Source: a virus. From it: a stretch of DNA of 64,000 bases. Under the pieces are notes generated by a model. The model was not told the DNA's origin and searched no databases. It was given only the letters and a program-made list of their open reading frames with translations. The stretch spans positions 1 through 64,000 of the IMG/VR virus record IMGVR_UViG_3300025151_000001; one strand, given 5' to 3'. Below, piece after piece: positions 25,885 through 64,000 of this stretch; within the stretch, counting starts at the first letter, position 1; each line of letters starts with the position of its first letter. The position numbers and the translations under genes are program-made.

Positions 25885-26110
25885 ATGGATTAAGGTTGCA
25901 AAATTCCTACATTGGTTTTTTGTGACTGAAGAAAAAGAACCGAAAGACTACACAACGATTTCGGACGATATTAAGAATTTAATTTATACAGTAAATAAAG
26001 AGGTGAATTTTGATGACATGGAAAATGATGAGCAATCTGTTGGAAGCAACGGACCAATCCCTACCAAGCAGGCAAATCTCAATGATTTCGAAGGCTCTGG
26101 AGAATTTTGA
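25871..26110 (+). CDS. Small protein with PIP-box-like C-terminus, overlapping the ligase start
   Basis: KQANLNDF motif. Confidence 0.5.
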   Translation: MKKNEWIKVAKFLHWFFVTEEKEPKDYTTISDDIKNLIYTVNKEVNFDDMENDEQSVGSNGPIPTKQANLNDFEGSGEF

Positions 26111-27539
26111 AGATAAGAGTAGCGTCGTTGCTATTCTTTCTCTGGAATACCCTTCAAATAATATTGGTGTTTCTAGAGCGAAAAAGTGGGTAGCAAATGC
26201 TTTCAATATTCATGATGATGAAATTGATGGTGATATGTCTGTTTATGAAGATATGGGAGATGTAGTCTATTTCTTAGACTCTTCAGCAGATTCAACAACA
26301 GAAACTTCAGTCTCTTCTGTTCTTAGATTTTTAGGAACTGATTGCTCAGGTATTGGCTCAGACTCATATAGGGCTTTTCGAGAAATGATTACCTCTCTTT
26401 CTGCTATTGAGCGAAAGTGGTTTATTCGTTATTGGATTAGAACGCCCCGTAATGGAATCAGCGAAGGAAACGTGGTCAAGATTCTAGCAAAGCATTTTGG
26501 TAAGAAACAAGCGGAAGTAAAGAAACATACTACGTTTAATAGTATTGCTAATGTTTGTGAATATTATATGGGAGACATGGAACCTTCTATGGTTCTCAGT
26601 CATGGAACATTTGTTTCTCCTATGTTAGCCAAATCAGTTCCACTAAATAAATGGCCTAAGAATCGTATTGTTGATTATAAATACGACGGTAATAGATACC
26701 AAATCCACAAGAAAGGTGACAACGTTATCATCTTTAATCGGAAAGGAAAGATTGTAACTAATCAATATCCAGATGTTGTCGAAATCATTCGTGATTATGA
26801 CTGTGATAACTCAATCTTTGATGGTGAGATTTACCCGATTCATGGAGATGGTTCGCCTGCCCCCCATCAACGTTTAGGAACCCGCGTTCATTCCAAAGAC
26901 CACGCGGAAGCCGTCAGGAGAGTCCCTGTGACGTGGGTAATCTTTGATTGCTTGAAGATGAACGGCGAAGTTGTTTTGGGCCTCTCATACTCTCATAGGC
27001 TTGAAGTTATGAAGGAGTTACCCAACCAAGCCCACCGGCAAATTGGTGGTAATGCAATCGCTTTCTACCACGAAGCGATTAATGCAGGTTTTGAAGGCAT
27101 CATCGTAAAAGATGCAGATGCCGAATATCAGCCCGGAAAGCGTTCTGTTTCTTGGGCTAAACACAAACCACCGCGTATTGAATTAGATGTGGTAATTCTT
27201 TCTGCTTCATATGGCGAAGGAAAGAGGGCAGGAGTTTTTGCTTCATTTGAAATTGGTGTTCGTTCAGGTAACGAATTTGTTAGCATTGGTCAAGTTGGAA
27301 CAGGCTTTAGTGAAGCGGAACTATTTAACTTAACTAACGCTTTGAGAAAGAATATCGAAGCAGTTGAAAAGAACAAGTATAAATTTTTGCCTAGAGTTGT
27401 TCTTGAAGTTTCTGCCGATTTAGTTAGCAGGGATGCTAAGGGTAATATTGGGCTAAGATTCCCAAGATGTAATAGAATTAGAGATGATAAGTTCGTCAAT
27501 GATATTAATACATTTGATGATGTAGTGAGGCTGATGTAA
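26010..27539 (+). CDS. lig: ATP-dependent DNA ligase
   Basis: PMLA, KYDGNR, FDGEI, FDCL, EGIIVK, Y.PGKR, VGTGFS, LRFPR. Confidence 0.95.
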   Translation: MMTWKMMSNLLEATDQSLPSRQISMISKALENFEDKSSVVAILSLEYPSNNIGVSRAKKWVANAFNIHDDEIDGDMSVYEDMGDVVYFLDSSADSTTETSVSSVLRFLGTDCSGIGSDSYRAFREMITSLSAIERKWFIRYWIRTPRNGISEGNVVKILAKHFGKKQAEVKKHTTFNSIANVCEYYMGDMEPSMVLSHGTFVSPMLAKSVPLNKWPKNRIVDYKYDGNRYQIHKKGDNVIIFNRKGKIVTNQYPDVVEIIRDYDCDNSIFDGEIYPIHGDGSPAPHQRLGTRVHSKDHAEAVRRVPVTWVIFDCLKMNGEVVLGLSYSHRLEVMKELPNQAHRQIGGNAIAFYHEAINAGFEGIIVKDADAEYQPGKRSVSWAKHKPPRIELDVVILSASYGEGKRAGVFASFEIGVRSGNEFVSIGQVGTGFSEAELFNLTNALRKNIEAVEKNKYKFLPRVVLEVSADLVSRDAKGNIGLRFPRCNRIRDDKFVNDINTFDDVVRLM

Positions 27540-42090: not shown

Positions 42091-42685
42091 AATGAATGTA
42101 ATGGCGATTGACTTAGAGACAAAAAATATGTCTTATGAAATTGGAGGATTTGGTAATACTCATATGTTTCAAGTTTCGACTGTGACTACTTGGGACGGTT
42201 CGACGGGGACGGCATATGTTGATGAAGCCGTTGATTCTTTCGCTAAGGGTGGTCACGTCGTCAAAAGCCTTCGTGACCTCAAATATGACCTAGACGATTT
42301 TCAGAAGACAGGAGGCCTTCTATTAGGCCACAATATCGCAGCGTTTGATTTACCTATCCTTCGAGATTCTTTGGACATATACTGCATTCGAAAGTATTTG
42401 GAGAATAAGCAATACATTGATACTAGTAAAGCATTACTTAAAGGACATGGGGAGAGATATCGTCTTCAAAATTTAGTTGAGTGTTCTTTAGGCGCTTCAA
42501 AGACTATGGATTCTGCTGATGCTCCTGCACTTTGGAAAGCAGGAGATTATGATACGGTCGTTGATTACTGTTTAAAGGACAGTCAATTAGTCTATGACCT
42601 TTGGAAATACGGTCAGAAAAATGGAATCGTTAAAGGATTTTCTGTTGAAAAAGAGGAGTTTGTTGATTTAGGAGTTGATTGGTGA
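42083..42685 (+). CDS. DEDD/RNase H-like 3'-5' exonuclease
   Basis: AIDLET, GHNIAAFDLP, YCLKD. Confidence 0.85.
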   Translation: MSEMNVMAIDLETKNMSYEIGGFGNTHMFQVSTVTTWDGSTGTAYVDEAVDSFAKGGHVVKSLRDLKYDLDDFQKTGGLLLGHNIAAFDLPILRDSLDIYCIRKYLENKQYIDTSKALLKGHGERYRLQNLVECSLGASKTMDSADAPALWKAGDYDTVVDYCLKDSQLVYDLWKYGQKNGIVKGFSVEKEEFVDLGVDW

Positions 42686-42837
42686 TGACAGGTTGGGAAA
42701 TTTTTGCTCTTATTGTTTTTTTGTTAATTGTGCTTTTGTTATTCTTTGCAGCATTTGGCGGTTCTAATATCACCGATGAATCTGTTGAGCAATACATGGC
42801 TCGCTTAATCAATTCGCGTGATAAGAATGGGCCTTAA
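42685..42837 (+). CDS. 50-aa single-TM protein
   Basis: Manual translation MTGWEIFALIVFLLIVLLLFFAAFGG... Confidence 0.65.
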   Translation: MTGWEIFALIVFLLIVLLLFFAAFGGSNITDESVEQYMARLINSRDKNGP

Positions 42838-56341: not shown

Positions 56342-58294
56342 TCACCCTTGGAGAATCCAATGGCTTACTGCGGTGCAGGATTGAAGAGTTCTAGGCATAA
56401 CTGTAGCCTCAACAACTACAGGGCCTTTATCGTCAGGGATTGGGAAGTTAACCGCAGAGGTTTGATAGTCAGTAAATTTGAGATTAAAGTTCTCGCCATT
56501 TGCTTTTTCAAACTGTAGTTCGATGTATTCTCCTGAAGCGGTGTTATCACCTGTTCTGCTCAAGAGTTCAGTATAGAGTTTGTCGTCAGTAACGTGTCCT
56601 GTAAATTGCAGTTCATAGGTTCTTTGTGCAGGAATGCCTTCTTTGATAGAGGTGTTACCCACGCCAATGAATCTCCGGTCTTGAAGATTGTTATTCATGG
56701 TCAAAGTTAGAGAATTGATTTTTAAGAACTGTTGACCAAAAATCTTGAAATATCCGCGAGAGAAGAAGAAAGGTTCAAGGAAGGTTGGTTGAGAACCGTA
56801 ATTGAAGAAAGTAGTTTCATCAGTTACGCCACGACGAGCATCATAAGATTCTGTTTGTTCAAGTGAATGAACTGCTCGACTGTTTAAGTCAAGAGTCATC
56901 TTGATTTCTTCATTTTCGTTAGCACTAAGCGTCAAGGTATTTACTCTATTTCCACGCGCAATCTTAACAAAGTTTAGGCTTTCATCAGCCGATGCTGTTT
57001 CAGTTCTGTAAGTGTTGGAAGAGGGAAGTTTGCTAAACACTTGCTCAATAGCAAAAGAAGGTAAGTTGTCTGTATCTTGTTCAGCAAAGGTGTATGTAAT
57101 TCCATTAGTCATGTTACCAGAAGATTCTCCCGGAACAGTAAGTTTATCCATGTTCGCAAGAGCGTCCGAACCTTTGAGAATCGGAGGGCAAATTACCGTT
57201 CCAACCGAACGATAGAAAATTGGACCCGTTTCAACGTGTGCGCCTGCATCAAAGTAGGTTGCACCGGAAGTTTGAGCAGTAAATTCATCACCTGCCGCTA
57301 ATGATTCAGTAGCGCTAGTCGCTGAAATGGTTGTGCATTTCCCTAAGAAATAATATAGCCAAGCAGCATGGTTAGCAACAATTCCTAGATTTGCACCACT
57401 AGCAGTTTCAATTCCTTTATACTGATAAGTAAAGTTACGCGAGCCACCGAGAGAAAGGTTCACCTGTTTCATTTCAACTTCAGTAGTTGGGAATGTAGCA
57501 GATTCAAGAATACCTAACCATTCATCGGCTAAGAGTCTTGCAGTTGCAGCCGTTGTGACGCTTGCACCGGCAGTAGTAGTAGTTTTAGTCATATTTGTGC
57601 TATCGGACACAGAGAGACTTTGACTAACTGTTCCTCCAAAGGTGTTAGTTAAAACTAAACTATCTCCGCTTCTTGAAGCAGAAAAATGAATAGAACCTGT
57701 TTTAGCAACTTCAGCAACAATAACGTCAATGACTTCTTCTGCCGTAGTGATATCAGCATCACTAATATCAACAGTTAAGTTAGCAGTTGCTCCTCCGTAT
57801 GAACCATCATTAGTCAAACCAATTACATAGGCAGTTGAAGTTGCTCCATCTGAAGAAGGAACTTGACCAAAAGAAATGCTATCATTATCATAGTTAGCCT
57901 TAGTATCTGAATTAAATTTAATGCTTAAAACTTGAGCAGTATGAATACTTGTGGAACCATCACCGGGTCCGGGAACAGGCGCACCATATCCACGAATGTG
58001 GAAATAATCCTGTGAAGTATTTACTGTAATGCTAGAGGAAATAGCAGGACTAAAGGTAATTGTTGTTGCGGTGTTAGCAGTAATTCTGTGAGAAGAAGTA
58101 AAAGTCCCATTGTCGTAATATTCAATAACACAACCTACATAGAGGTCTTTAACTAACCGATAATCATCTGAAAAAGCAGTTGCTACAGTAATTACGTTTT
58201 GAGTATTAATAACCGAAATCGGAACGTAAATATCAGTTTCAGGCACAAATGTGAGCGATGCTCCGCTTCCTAGAAAAATGTCGGTGTTAGGCAT
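56342..58294 (-). CDS. Major tail (tube) protein with inserted domains
   Basis: Position; C-terminal SFAIEQ / RVNTLTL / LTMNNNL tube-like pattern. Confidence 0.7.
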   Translation of the reverse strand: MPNTDIFLGSGASLTFVPETDIYVPISVINTQNVITVATAFSDDYRLVKDLYVGCVIEYYDNGTFTSSHRITANTATTITFSPAISSSITVNTSQDYFHIRGYGAPVPGPGDGSTSIHTAQVLSIKFNSDTKANYDNDSISFGQVPSSDGATSTAYVIGLTNDGSYGGATANLTVDISDADITTAEEVIDVIVAEVAKTGSIHFSASRSGDSLVLTNTFGGTVSQSLSVSDSTNMTKTTTTAGASVTTAATARLLADEWLGILESATFPTTEVEMKQVNLSLGGSRNFTYQYKGIETASGANLGIVANHAAWLYYFLGKCTTISATSATESLAAGDEFTAQTSGATYFDAGAHVETGPIFYRSVGTVICPPILKGSDALANMDKLTVPGESSGNMTNGITYTFAEQDTDNLPSFAIEQVFSKLPSSNTYRTETASADESLNFVKIARGNRVNTLTLSANENEEIKMTLDLNSRAVHSLEQTESYDARRGVTDETTFFNYGSQPTFLEPFFFSRGYFKIFGQQFLKINSLTLTMNNNLQDRRFIGVGNTSIKEGIPAQRTYELQFTGHVTDDKLYTELLSRTGDNTASGEYIELQFEKANGENFNLKFTDYQTSAVNFPIPDDKGPVVVEATVMPRTLQSCTAVSHWILQG

Positions 58295-61579: not shown

Positions 61580-62212
61580 TCACATTAGCCACTTAGCCCA
61601 AGCCGCACCCTTTTGTGCAACTTGCATCAAGCCTAATCCTGCTTGTGGGGGTTCATAGGACATTTGCCCTGTTTGTGGGTCAATCCAATAAGGACGACCA
61701 TAGCCGTCTGTTCCGGCAGGTGGAACCGGATAACCTGAGCCGTTTTGCATAGCCCCTTGCATTTGATAACCACCGGCCATAGCACCACCCATAGCGCCAC
61801 CACCAAATGCAGCCGCGCCCGGTGAACCTGCACCAAAGCCTTGAGATTCAAGGTATTGCTGCTTCGCCATTTTACGTTGCTGAATTACCTCTTGATTTAA
61901 TGCAGATTGTAGAATTCTCTCGATATCAAGTTCGATATTTTCAGCAGTAATTCTTTCGTATTCTCGCATAGCATCGGGGTTCATTGTCGCGGAAGTTCCG
62001 TTGATATCCAATTTTAGTTTAGTTAACATTTTGCTTACTACTCTCTCAGTAACATCTTCCATTAACTTTTCTAAAGTGCTAAGAAAATCCTTACCGTGGT
62101 ATTGGAAAAATTCTTCAACATGGTTCTCTTGAAGAGAAAGAAGATTATTGACGGTTTTAAACGTCGTATCTCCTTGGCTGCTAATTGCGTTAATCACGTC
62201 TTTCTGTCCCAT
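61580..62212 (-). CDS. Helical protein with Gly/Met-rich linker and WW-like motif
   Basis: GRPYWIDPQTGQMSYEPP. Confidence 0.7.
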   Translation of the reverse strand: MGQKDVINAISSQGDTTFKTVNNLLSLQENHVEEFFQYHGKDFLSTLEKLMEDVTERVVSKMLTKLKLDINGTSATMNPDAMREYERITAENIELDIERILQSALNQEVIQQRKMAKQQYLESQGFGAGSPGAAAFGGGAMGGAMAGGYQMQGAMQNGSGYPVPPAGTDGYGRPYWIDPQTGQMSYEPPQAGLGLMQVAQKGAAWAKWLM

Positions 62213-62840
62213 TTAATTCAACTCCTTTATCAACTAAGTGATTTAATCTTTGAATGCTTGCATTAAGGTCATTCAAAAGAGCAGATGCTTCAGCCCTCTC
62301 GTCCTCAATCGTTGCAGGGGCGGGCGGCTTTATAGACCAACCGGCGGCGGTGAGAGAGGTAACATCTTGTGGTGTTAAGCCGGTAAGTGGTCCTTTTTTC
62401 ATAATTGAAGGCATTTTAGGTTTAAACCCTTTAAATTCAAGACCATGTTCATTAGCAAGAATCTGTTGCTCTAACATTTCCATTTGCATATGAATAGCAG
62501 CGTGTTTAGGACAATAGGTTCCTCTCATTGGGCGACCCTTATGGACTTCTGTTAAAGGAATAACAGGGCGTAAATAATCTCCTGCATCCCAATGGTGATG
62601 TGTTCCACAAACAACACAACGGTCCTTAAGATTAAATTGCTTTCCATATCTAAAGAACAGAAACTTCTTCTTTTCTGGTAGCAATACCTTTCTAATTTCC
62701 TTAAGTTGTTTCTTAGGTTTAATTGAATCATATTTGTATTCTTCAATCTGACCCGGAGAACGAAACATCGGTAATTTAGGCAAAAATGCCGAAGGTGCTT
62801 GGGCACTTTGCATTCCCATTAGTTGTGGTTGCTGATACAT
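62190..62840 (-). CDS. Zn-finger protein (CxxC...CxxH)
   Basis: CVVCG...YCPKH; Q/P-rich N-terminus. Confidence 0.7.
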   Translation of the reverse strand: MYQQPQLMGMQSAQAPSAFLPKLPMFRSPGQIEEYKYDSIKPKKQLKEIRKVLLPEKKKFLFFRYGKQFNLKDRCVVCGTHHHWDAGDYLRPVIPLTEVHKGRPMRGTYCPKHAAIHMQMEMLEQQILANEHGLEFKGFKPKMPSIMKKGPLTGLTPQDVTSLTAAGWSIKPPAPATIEDERAEASALLNDLNASIQRLNHLVDKGVELNGTERRD

Positions 62841-62845
62841 AATAA

Positions 62846-63505
62846 TCAATAATCCTTAATCATTGTGAAGATTCCTTTATACACCATTTCAGGGTCAGAT
62901 TTTGCAGAAACAATATACTTAAAACAAGGTATTCCTCTATCGTTTAGTTTGCTCATTCCGTATCTAAAGGGTTCAAAGATTTCATGTTTTAGAATATCAT
63001 CCGTTGGATATTTTTTTCCCCAAATATCATATTTGTTTGCCCAAATTCCTACCGCTAATGGAAAGTCTGCATCCTTTTTCTTTTTACCGTCAGGCCAATA
63101 ATCATTAATCATCGCATCAACAAAAAATTTCCATGCAATTTGGTGGTCCATATTTGAGTCGCTATCTAAGTGTCGGTGGTCAATCATAAAGATAACGTAT
63201 TTTACTTTCCTCTCTCGCATATCTTTGAGCCATTCTTTCCAATAGATTGCCTCTCCACCAATGTCTGCTGTTTTTAATGTATGAGCATTACCATCGAGTT
63301 TAACATATTTTCTTGATGCACGGTGTCTTCCGACCGTTCTTTCTTTAATTTGTTGAACTTCTCCCCGTGTTCTCAATTGATGATGTAATGTTGTCTTTCC
63401 AACCATTGTTGCTCCATAAACTCCAAAATGAACTGCATGAAGTTTTCTGTAAATAGCAAGGGCCGCTTCCGTCACAACAACCGCAAAGCCCGTAAGAAGA
63501 GACAT
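62846..63505 (-). CDS. Ras/Arf-superfamily small GTPase
   Basis: G1 GATMVGKTT, G2 RTVG, G3 DIGG, G4 NKYD, G5 SAK. Confidence 0.88.
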   Translation of the reverse strand: MSLLTGFAVVVTEAALAIYRKLHAVHFGVYGATMVGKTTLHHQLRTRGEVQQIKERTVGRHRASRKYVKLDGNAHTLKTADIGGEAIYWKEWLKDMRERKVKYVIFMIDHRHLDSDSNMDHQIAWKFFVDAMINDYWPDGKKKKDADFPLAVGIWANKYDIWGKKYPTDDILKHEIFEPFRYGMSKLNDRGIPCFKYIVSAKSDPEMVYKGIFTMIKDY

Positions 63506-63520
63506 TCATTGAAACCCTCC

Positions 63521-63736
63521 TTAATGAGTAAAAATACCAACAACGGCGTTAATCATCCAACCGATGATATCAACACCAAAGACTCCACCGACATTACCTA
63601 AAAGTAATGCGGCAACGGAACAAGTAATTCCGTAAAACCAAGCCTTTAATTTAAGAAACATAATGTCGGCAGAATGGGCGCGAGTCTGATTATACATGTA
63701 ATCAGAATCAGACATACCCATAAGGTCCATCAACAA
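63521..63736 (-). CDS. Small membrane protein
   Basis: Hydrophobic C-terminal segments. Confidence 0.7.
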   Translation of the reverse strand: MLMDLMGMSDSDYMYNQTRAHSADIMFLKLKAWFYGITCSVAALLLGNVGGVFGVDIIGWMINAVVGIFTH

Positions 63737-63746
63737 TCATATCACC

Positions 63747-64000
63747 TTATTGCAATTTAGCCAAGAAGTCAGCACTAACCTCGTTGTTTTGGTTTTGAAA
63801 ACCAAACTGCGGTGAAGTGTTATAATCCGTTTGAAATTGCTTAGATGCTTCAAGAAGTTTTTTCTTTTGTTGTTCGTCACGGGACATTCTTGCCCAATAT
63901 GCTTCAATCTTGCGGTCGAGCAAAAACAATTCAATACGGTCATTGAGGAATAAGTCCCCAATGGCTTTCATAATCATAATTGCTCCAACAGTAACTAAAC
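63747..64000 (-). CDS. Probable membrane protein, 5' end outside the window
   Basis: Frame open to the window edge (LVTVGAIMIMKAIG...). Confidence 0.65.
   Translation of the reverse strand, partial: LVTVGAIMIMKAIGDLFLNDRIELFLLDRKIEAYWARMSRDEQQKKKLLEASKQFQTDYNTSPQFGFQNQNNEVSADFLAKLQ

Follow-up and report, generated by a model that had tools for sequence, protein, structure and literature searches.

The first 64,000 bases of IMG/VR virus record IMGVR_UViG_3300025151_000001 (the window) end within a cassette of five minus-strand genes, at the centre of which lies a small GTPase. The record is a single, complete genome of 92,240 bp with direct terminal repeats, of which the window comprises bases 1-64000. 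It belongs to a magrovirus, a tailed virus of the Marine Group II archaea (Poseidoniales), which are abundant in the ocean. Between the window GTPase and gp088 of Poseidoniales virus YSH_150918, which is the type magrovirus in the ICTV profile (PMC10768690), the identity is 75%. From the first gene to the fifth, the cassette consists of:

63747-64139, minus strand: TM130, of which the window holds the C-terminal 84 codons (63747..64000)
63521-63736, minus strand: TM71
62846-63505, minus strand: GTPase
62190-62840/62849, minus strand: Zn219
61580-62212, minus strand: GP210

Neighbouring genes of the five are -23 to +15 nt apart, and a ribosome site of the GGTGAT, GGAGG or AAGGAG type stands before each. 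For Zn219 the conserved ATG at 62840 is a likelier start than the TTG at 62849 taken by the open reading frame (ORF) finder. The dN/dS ratios lie between 0.07 (TM130) and 0.32 (TM71) when taken from unsaturated synonymous sites, the synonymous sites of the cassette genes being close to saturation. All five are under purifying selection, and they are thus regarded as real and constrained genes.

The cassette is conserved as a whole. The first set of related loci (group A) numbers 285 in IMG/VR; synteny was read in the best 80 of these, 54 of which had enough flank. The order TM130, TM71, GTPase, Zn219, GP210 and the strand are kept in 54/54 loci, so the five genes form a unit that is inherited together. 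The earlier note had described five tightly coupled genes upstream of the neck and tail genes and had proposed to look for them in relatives; both the coupling and the co-occurrence are borne out. No gene of the region is better conserved than the GTPase, whose median identity is 74% versus 68% for the capsid protein. TM130 is present in 75 of the 76 more distant members of the 80 loci (median identity 59%), and the median identity of TM71 is 54%.

A second subfamily of the GTPase (group B) was found at 266 loci of a distant group of magroviruses, on contigs of about 95-109 kb. Its members are 28-35% identical to those of group A and lie in the same gene order: first come a protein with two transmembrane (TM) segments (143-186 aa) and a 1-TM protein (73-82 aa), and after the GTPase (~241 aa) follow a Cys/His protein (~300-345 aa), one rich in Gly, Met and Gln (~210 aa) and an extra 2-TM protein (~85 aa). 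Zn219 is homologous to the gene that follows the group-B GTPase (hhalign 97.8%, E 7.7e-13), with weaker support for GP210 and its counterpart (hhalign 74%, E 2.8e-5). Profile-profile comparison gave no similarity between the TM proteins of the two groups, which by sequence are positional and topological analogues only. The group-B cassette lies on the late strand about 10 kb upstream of TerL and not between capsid and neck genes; in one such genome the GTPase is at ~31.1-31.8 kb, TerL at 20.0-21.4 kb and the major capsid protein (MCP) at 8.8-9.9 kb. As the location differs and the layout is the same, the cassette travels as a unit that is not tied to the neck genes, and its relocation argues against a structural role specific to the neck. 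That the five genes stay together and move together in both groups speaks for a single functional unit.

In 18 of the 54 related loci, inserts of 250-880 bp lie exactly after the stop codon of the GTPase and before the start of Zn219 (a junction at 62840-62846 in the window), for example L004:6666-7529, L005:4758-5087, L033:6669-7196, L027:6666-7133 and L067:6660-7235. All 11 inserts that were read hold one or two otherwise unrelated ORFs starting with MW(F/K/E)(D/N)(I/V)(L/I)(K/R), and this site has the look of a hotspot at which genes with the MW tag are inserted.

The GTPase is 219 aa long and contains the following elements:

63449..63502, minus strand: hydrophobic helix, residues 2-19, then Arg-Lys; helix 2-22 in the AlphaFold2 (AF2) model
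63392..63415, minus strand: G1 (P-loop) GATMVGKT, residues 31-38; G31, G36, K37 and T38 invariant in 133 sequences
63251..63265, minus strand: G3 and start of switch II, DIGGE, residues 81-85; D81 and G84 invariant in 133 sequences
63026..63037, minus strand: G4 NKYD for guanine specificity, residues 157-160; N157, K158 and D160 invariant in 133 sequences
62900..62908, minus strand: G5 SAK, residues 200-202; invariant in group A, A/S-T/A-R/Q/K in group B

The earlier note had credited the protein with the full set of G motifs, and G1, G3 (81-84), G4 and G5 are indeed present. The first three show no variation in 133 distinct sequences from the two subfamilies, and all four are invariant among 23 homologues. 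The candidate for G2 is T57 (in RTVG), which is invariant in group A; the invariant Thr of group B aligns two columns off, and the AF2 model around the candidate (residues 48-59) has a predicted local distance difference test (pLDDT) score below 50. Switch II begins with D-x-G-G, which conserved aromatics (YW..W) follow, and an Asp motif comes after strand 4. At position 85, where Ras and Arf have their catalytic Gln, Glu is found in 64/64 group-A sequences. The group-B proteins have Q, E or D after DxGG, with Gln in 35 of 69. The motifs for nucleotide binding are kept, and the protein is predicted to bind GTP.

The AF2 model of the GTPase is of moderate confidence (mean pLDDT 68.8) and presents a small G domain. 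Foldseek matched it to Rab33, Rab1b, KRas, HRas, Arl3 and G-alpha at E about 1e-7. Structural alignment by VIA-align gave Z 10.4-13.8 overall across residues about 22-219, with LokiRagO, Arf6, SR-beta, Arl2, Gi-alpha, Sar1 and Arl13B tied at the top (Z 12.7-13.8) and Ras and Rab ~1-2 Z units under this tie. When the window protein was searched against Pfam, MMR_HSR1, Roc, SRPRB and Ras were each listed below threshold, and the NCBIfam model small_GTP was likewise sub-threshold at 19.6 bits against a cut-off of 42.5. A phmmer search of PDB sequences gave no match, and the group-A profile found KRas and HRas at E about 0.08 only. The Pfam Arf model (PF00025) did not match the window GTPase at E <= 0.1, nor a six-frame translation at E <= 10. 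This model gives a signal in all 14 control genomes and exceeds its cut-off in 13 of them, so that passing it is not very specific.

The relationship to Arf emerges among the distant members of the family (22-31% identity), for which Arf is the top Pfam family at 27-57 bits; one of these relatives carries the name SR-beta at the Joint Genome Institute (JGI). With a profile of the wider family, the best solved relative in PDB is the Asgard protein GerdArfR1 (8OUN), matched over its full length at E 4.4e-14, followed by Arl3, Arf1, Arl8, G-alpha, EngA and SR-beta. The viral protein has the G-domain fold, the D-x-G-G switch II with its aromatics and the Asp motif after strand 4 in common with the Arf family (ArfR 8OUN/8OUM, Arf1/Arf6, Arl3/Arl8 and Sar1). 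It differs in its Glu in place of the catalytic Gln, its hydrophobic helix and the lack of a Pfam Arf match, and its family is a narrow, virus-borne offshoot. Membership of the Arf family itself was rejected, since the Pfam Arf model missed the protein, the helix is not amphipathic and the catalytic Gln is absent. The GTPase is best described as very divergent and Arf-like at the level of profile and modelled structure only, and it probably works like, and descends from, the Arf/Sar/SR-beta branch. The eukaryote-like parts proposed in the earlier note can be retained for the GTPase, at the profile and fold level, but not for the other four proteins, which have no eukaryote-like relatives.

The N-terminal helix had been compared to those of Arf and Sar1. 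The defining feature of Arf proteins is reported to be an N-terminal amphipathic helix that is released upon GTP binding (10.1101/2024.02.28.582541). Residues 2-19 of the viral protein score 1.74 on the Kyte-Doolittle scale; on that of Eisenberg the mean hydrophobicity is 0.64 and the moment 0.23, with a mean hydrophobicity of 0.70 over group A and values of 0.49 and 0.19, respectively, for the group-B helix. Within group A, G6, F7, A8 and E13 of the helix are invariant. The hydrophobic character thus stands (0.64-0.70) but the amphipathic one does not, as the high mean hydrophobicity and a moment of about 0.2 read as a short membrane anchor. From its sequence, the helix is probably a permanent short anchor with the G domain in the cytoplasm, a predicted topology that corresponds to the layout of SR-beta.

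SR-beta likewise has an N-terminal membrane anchor directly before an Arf-like, cytoplasm-facing G domain, and it is in the top structural tie (VIA-align: 2fh5_B Z 13.4, 7obq_v Z 12.9; 1nrj_B follows with Z 11.6). This architecture would suit a cassette that takes over or excludes at the level of the host membrane, acting on targeting, transport or receptors through superinfection exclusion or SR-beta-like recruitment, with no part in virion release. The sub-threshold SRPRB match and the relative named SR-beta point the same way, and the retention of the cassette in all related loci examined would fit a core host-interaction function. SR-beta is, however, a eukaryotic protein of the endoplasmic reticulum, and the viral cassette has no visible link to the signal recognition particle (SRP). 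The GTPase scores 15 bits against a cut-off of 25 on Pfam SRPRB (PF09439), and among the cassette neighbours Pfam and NCBIfam revealed no SR-alpha, no partner of the SRX/longin type and no component of SRP, NCBIfam yielding nothing but the sub-threshold small_GTP. PADLOC gave no match for nine proteins, and the co-orientation and coupling of the cassette with late structural genes fit a late function better than an early takeover. A takeover or exclusion role is therefore judged improbable.

The GTPase family has a narrow distribution. An exhaustive search of 1.84 billion representatives with the group-A profile returned 77 proteins at E <= 0.001, from which this narrowness follows. In the ESM Atlas, viral clusters come first and small Arf-annotated clusters next, and by tblastn the GTPase matched none of 50,697 phage records. 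Among the 185,579 species genomes of GTDB there was one group-A match, on a 12.2-kb contig (NZMJ01000024.1) in a metagenome-assembled genome (MAG) of the bacterium 'Maricaulis'. The contig is of the same size and range as the IMG/VR viral contig UViG_2788500287_000048, and is evidently a magrovirus-type fragment misbinned into the MAG. The group-A family is therefore virus-restricted, having been found in no cellular genome. Six distant Arf-like relatives (P0159, P0169, P0132, P0138, P0178 and P0186), which sit on contigs of 1-9 kb, had no match in scans of viral and metagenome loci.

Upstream of the GTPase lie two predicted membrane proteins, in agreement with the earlier note. TM130 (130 aa) has two TM segments, at residues 10-28 and 43-61, and ends in a C-terminal tail that is charged and rich in Gln and Lys. 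TM71 (71 aa) has an acidic N-terminus, one TM segment (37-55) with a GxxGGxxG motif, and a hydrophobic C-terminal end. A survey of membrane proteins on a greedy gene set of the whole genome placed in the late block only TM130, TM71, the GTPase (through its helix) and the presumed tape measure (516 aa, 4 TM). TM130, TM71 and the GTPase are thus the only small proteins of this block with predicted membrane segments.

Small membrane proteins that a lytic tailed virus makes late, and whose C-terminal tail is charged, recall holins. TM130 and TM71 might accordingly be a holin-like perforating pair, with the GTPase and the soluble proteins unrelated to them and neighbours by history. The TM segment of TM71 is glycine-zipper-like, and holins are considered too diverse for detection by homology (PMC10791045). 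TM130 shows the generic traits of holins, namely small size, TM segments and a charged C-terminus. Neither protein matched a holin family in Pfam or PHROGs, and no endolysin adjoins them. The earlier note had recognised no holin or endolysin in the window, and none was matched in the nine genes checked, from 56342 to the window end. To our knowledge, no holin works with a GTPase. A holin pair with unrelated neighbours is very doubtful, as the five genes occur together in two distant groups and have been relocated together.

The gene after the GTPase, Zn219, encodes a protein with a Gln/Pro-rich N-terminus, a Lys-rich helix, a Cys/His core and a C-terminal helix. The core holds one feature:

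62502..62618, minus strand: putative metal site C78-x2-C81...C113-P-x-H116 of Zn219, numbered from the TTG start

The residues C78, C113, P114 and H116 do not vary in 32 sequences from both virus groups; C81 and H85 are almost invariant. The spacing, C-x2-C-x31-C-P-x-H, differs from that of the ArfGAP finger (C-x2-C-x16-C-x2-C-x4-R), which was considered and rejected, there being also no Pfam match at E <= 0.1. Zn219 had no match in Pfam, PHROG or NCBIfam, nor among PDB sequences by profile. Its AF2 model (pLDDT 67) gave nothing in PDB at E <= 0.001 by Foldseek, and a wide VIA-align comparison reached a best Z of 3.9, confined to the C-terminal helix. There are 696 homologues; the 120 listed lie on contigs up to ~100 kb and bear only the name 'hypothetical protein' and no Pfam domain. 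A complex prediction of GTPase residues 24-219 with Zn219 residues 40-170 scored 0.00, which is evidence neither way. Of the Q/P-rich Zn-finger protein that had been proposed, the Gln/Pro-rich N-terminus and a conserved Cys/His pattern are confirmed, but there is no fold or family match and zinc is suggested by the pattern.

GP210 has a helical N-terminal domain (~residues 20-125) followed by a low-complexity stretch rich in Gly, Ala, Met and Gln. It also carries a conserved Pro/Tyr motif and, at its C-terminus, a conserved hydrophobic-basic end, KGAAWAKWLM. No relative was found in PDB by profile, and the ESM Atlas returned nothing useful. The proposal that it is WW-like concerns the following stretch:

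61646..61711, minus strand: residues 168-189 of GP210, the 'WW-like' stretch (GRPYWIDPQTGQMSYEPP with its flanks); sub-threshold in Pfam

Pfam WW (PF00397) matches here at E 0.029 with 14.8 bits against a cut-off of 26.9, and over profile positions 10-31 only, two thirds of the model. Relative to what we take to be the WW consensus, the position of the first signature Trp is Thr and that of the second is Tyr. The motif is conserved in group A and absent from the group-B counterpart. With a score below the cut-off, a partial profile and this limitation to group A, the WW domain was rejected, and the earlier description of GP210 falls with it.

The position of the cassette in the genome bears on its time of expression. 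Replication genes (a UvrD-type helicase, a chaperonin, an ATP-dependent ligase and a family B polymerase) are on the plus-strand half, and the late block is the minus-strand half. In transcription order, the other genes of the late block that frame the cassette are:

77503-78990, minus strand: TerL, the first of the block
74090-75772, minus strand: putative portal-sized ORF, 560 aa, after TerL
68059-70557, minus strand: 832-aa ligase-domain protein, between the portal-sized ORF and the protease/scaffold-like ORF
between the 832-aa ligase-domain protein and MCP, minus strand: putative protease/scaffold-like ORF, 401 aa
65461-66804, minus strand: MCP
between MCP and TM130, minus strand: p193, p124 and p93
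downstream of GP210, minus strand: p412, p436 (phrog_17057) and p169
56342-58294, minus strand: Phage_tube_2 protein, 650 aa, downstream of p169

The earlier note had advised inspecting the genes beyond 64000; the start of TM130 is found there at 64139, followed by p93, p124, p193 and MCP in the direction of TerL. The cassette has capsid genes on one side and neck and tail genes on the other. Since it is co-oriented and tightly coupled with structural genes, it is probably a late cassette.

Among the known systems found, the closest to the magrovirus cassette is ArvABC (also OapABC), a vesiculation system of Haloferax volcanii and other Euryarchaeota and DPANN (Mills et al. 2024, PMC10927574). 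It has been reported that vesicles no longer form when ArvA, an Arf-like GTPase, is deleted, that ArvB is SepF-like, and that ArvC is a Zn-ribbon protein proposed as the GTPase-activating protein of ArvA (PMC10927574). Both systems are operons around a small Arf-like GTPase with a hydrophobic-faced helix at its N-terminus; a protein of the zinc type and a third one, whose fold class is unknown, go with it. As with the viral GTPase, Pfam lists ArvA under MMR_HSR1 while profile methods place it nearest Arf. Action on the cytoplasmic membrane is reported for ArvABC and may be supposed for the viral cassette. The viral partners differ in that they are not homologous to ArvB (OapB) or ArvC (OapC), and the gene order is not the same, the viral zinc protein coming directly after the GTPase. 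The viral cassette also has two additional integral membrane proteins, and its GTPase helix is uniformly hydrophobic and not amphipathic.

The reading preferred here, tentatively and with a confidence a little short of even, is that a late, membrane-anchored GTPase switch would remodel or perforate the host membrane for release, or act at a late membrane site. At the centre of the cassette, a virus-specific Arf-like GTPase is probably held by its hydrophobic helix at the cytoplasmic face of the host membrane. TM130 and TM71 probably mark or form the membrane site. Zn219, with its putative CCCH-type metal site, and GP210 would be the probable regulator and effector of this switch. Expression is probably late, together with the structural genes, and the likeliest outcome would be that GTP gates a remodelling or perforation of the host membrane to release virions, or the preparation of a late membrane site. 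The remodelling or egress role is suggested by gene content and by the analogy with ArvABC; membrane insertion, topology, late expression and partner contacts of the cassette proteins are likewise predicted.

The players of egress in the archaeal head-tailed viruses have been described as 'completely uncharacterized' (PMC10791045), and the one holin-type proposal concerns the Adrikavirales only, which are unrelated viruses (PMC11706807). The cassette may be the missing egress or lysis machine of these viruses, in which the membrane-anchored GTPase would time or drive perforation or vesiculation by the TM proteins under a zinc regulator. It would then correspond to the holin clock, with a GTPase as its gate, and would be the parallel in viruses to the ArvABC vesiculation of Euryarchaeota. 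This more specific form of the membrane-switch reading is somewhat unlikely.

A number of observations weigh against the membrane-switch reading. OapB (PF09846) and OapC (PF09845) gave no match in six frames of the whole 92-kb genome at E <= 1. In the control for OapB, Haloferax gave a signal among the control genomes, two of which exceed the cut-off, and in five group-B genomes OapC gave only a chance match (E 0.085) away from the cassette. With neither protein present, the analogy with ArvABC is architectural only. The roles of Zn219 and GP210 as regulator and effector are guesses, as the partners had no match to a known family, a known fold or a solved structure. The TM segments are calls from Kyte-Doolittle hydropathy alone. 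With Glu in place of the catalytic Gln, the GTPase may hydrolyse GTP poorly or in an altered manner. Strict translational coupling of the GTPase to Zn219 is not required, given the inserts between them in one third of the relatives. In the window virus, moreover, the cassette lies among head and neck genes, and residues 22-124 of GP210 have a weak, partial match to phrog_14074 ('virion structural protein', E 3.4e-4).

The last two observations keep a virion or assembly role in play. Under this explanation the TM proteins and GP210 would be internal or ejection proteins or neck-tail assembly factors, and the GTPase an assembly chaperone or checkpoint for the completion of heads or their joining to tails. 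The tight coupling of the cassette between capsid and accessory genes on one side and neck and tail genes on the other is consistent with it, and TM segments are common in the ejection proteins and tape measures of tailed phages. The group-B cassette, ~10 kb upstream of TerL and away from the capsid and neck genes, argues against it, as do the lack of a tblastn match to the GTPase in the phage records and the weak and partial nature of the phrog_14074 match. Among the factors that assemble the heads or tails of tailed viruses, we know of no GTPase. The virion or assembly explanation is thus rather unlikely, and the late membrane switch continues to be the preferred, if tentative, reading.

Several further features were noted in these genomes. 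A 52-aa ORF at 42679-42837 on the plus strand, at the end of the early block, reaches a Kyte-Doolittle value of 3.37 in residues 8-26, and no other small ORF of the genome is as hydrophobic. The 832-aa protein of the late block contains the adenylation domain of an ATP-dependent DNA ligase (Pfam DNA_ligase_A_M, E 1.2e-31) and comes on top of a canonical 509-aa ligase at 26010-27539. Between the portal-sized ORF and TerL lies a 530-aa ORF (75901-77493, minus strand) with the sequence AAFIDSDGY, which by eye resembles the LAGLIDADG motif of homing endonucleases. In group B, a 143-aa EF-hand protein (EF-hand_1, E 2e-7; L152:10660-11091, plus strand) is encoded two genes downstream of the cassette; its gene comes after the extra 2-TM gene, and upstream a GP88 domain (E 1.2e-9) is found in a 778-aa protein. 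The TerL homologue of another group-B genome (G002:C1:66289-67689, the record of L117) spans two in-frame TGA codons, which could come from an error in sequencing, from a frameshift, from the boundary of an intein or from recoding.

Magroviruses are uncultured and have been reported as the third most abundant marine virus group (Philosof et al. 2017, PMC5434244). The magrovirus literature searched makes no mention of a GTPase, and the ICTV genome map of the type magrovirus has no GTPase label (PMC10768690). The NCBI name of the GTPase orthologue is hypothetical, and some JGI records carry the automatic name 'GTPase SAR1 family protein'. The cassette is a conserved, virus-only and apparently membrane-directed GTPase unit, and it offers a concrete set of five genes for testing. 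Arf-like membrane switches have so far been known from eukaryotes, from Asgard archaea (ArfR) and from haloarchaea (ArvA). If the preferred reading is true, they would be extended to viruses of Euryarchaeota-grade archaea.

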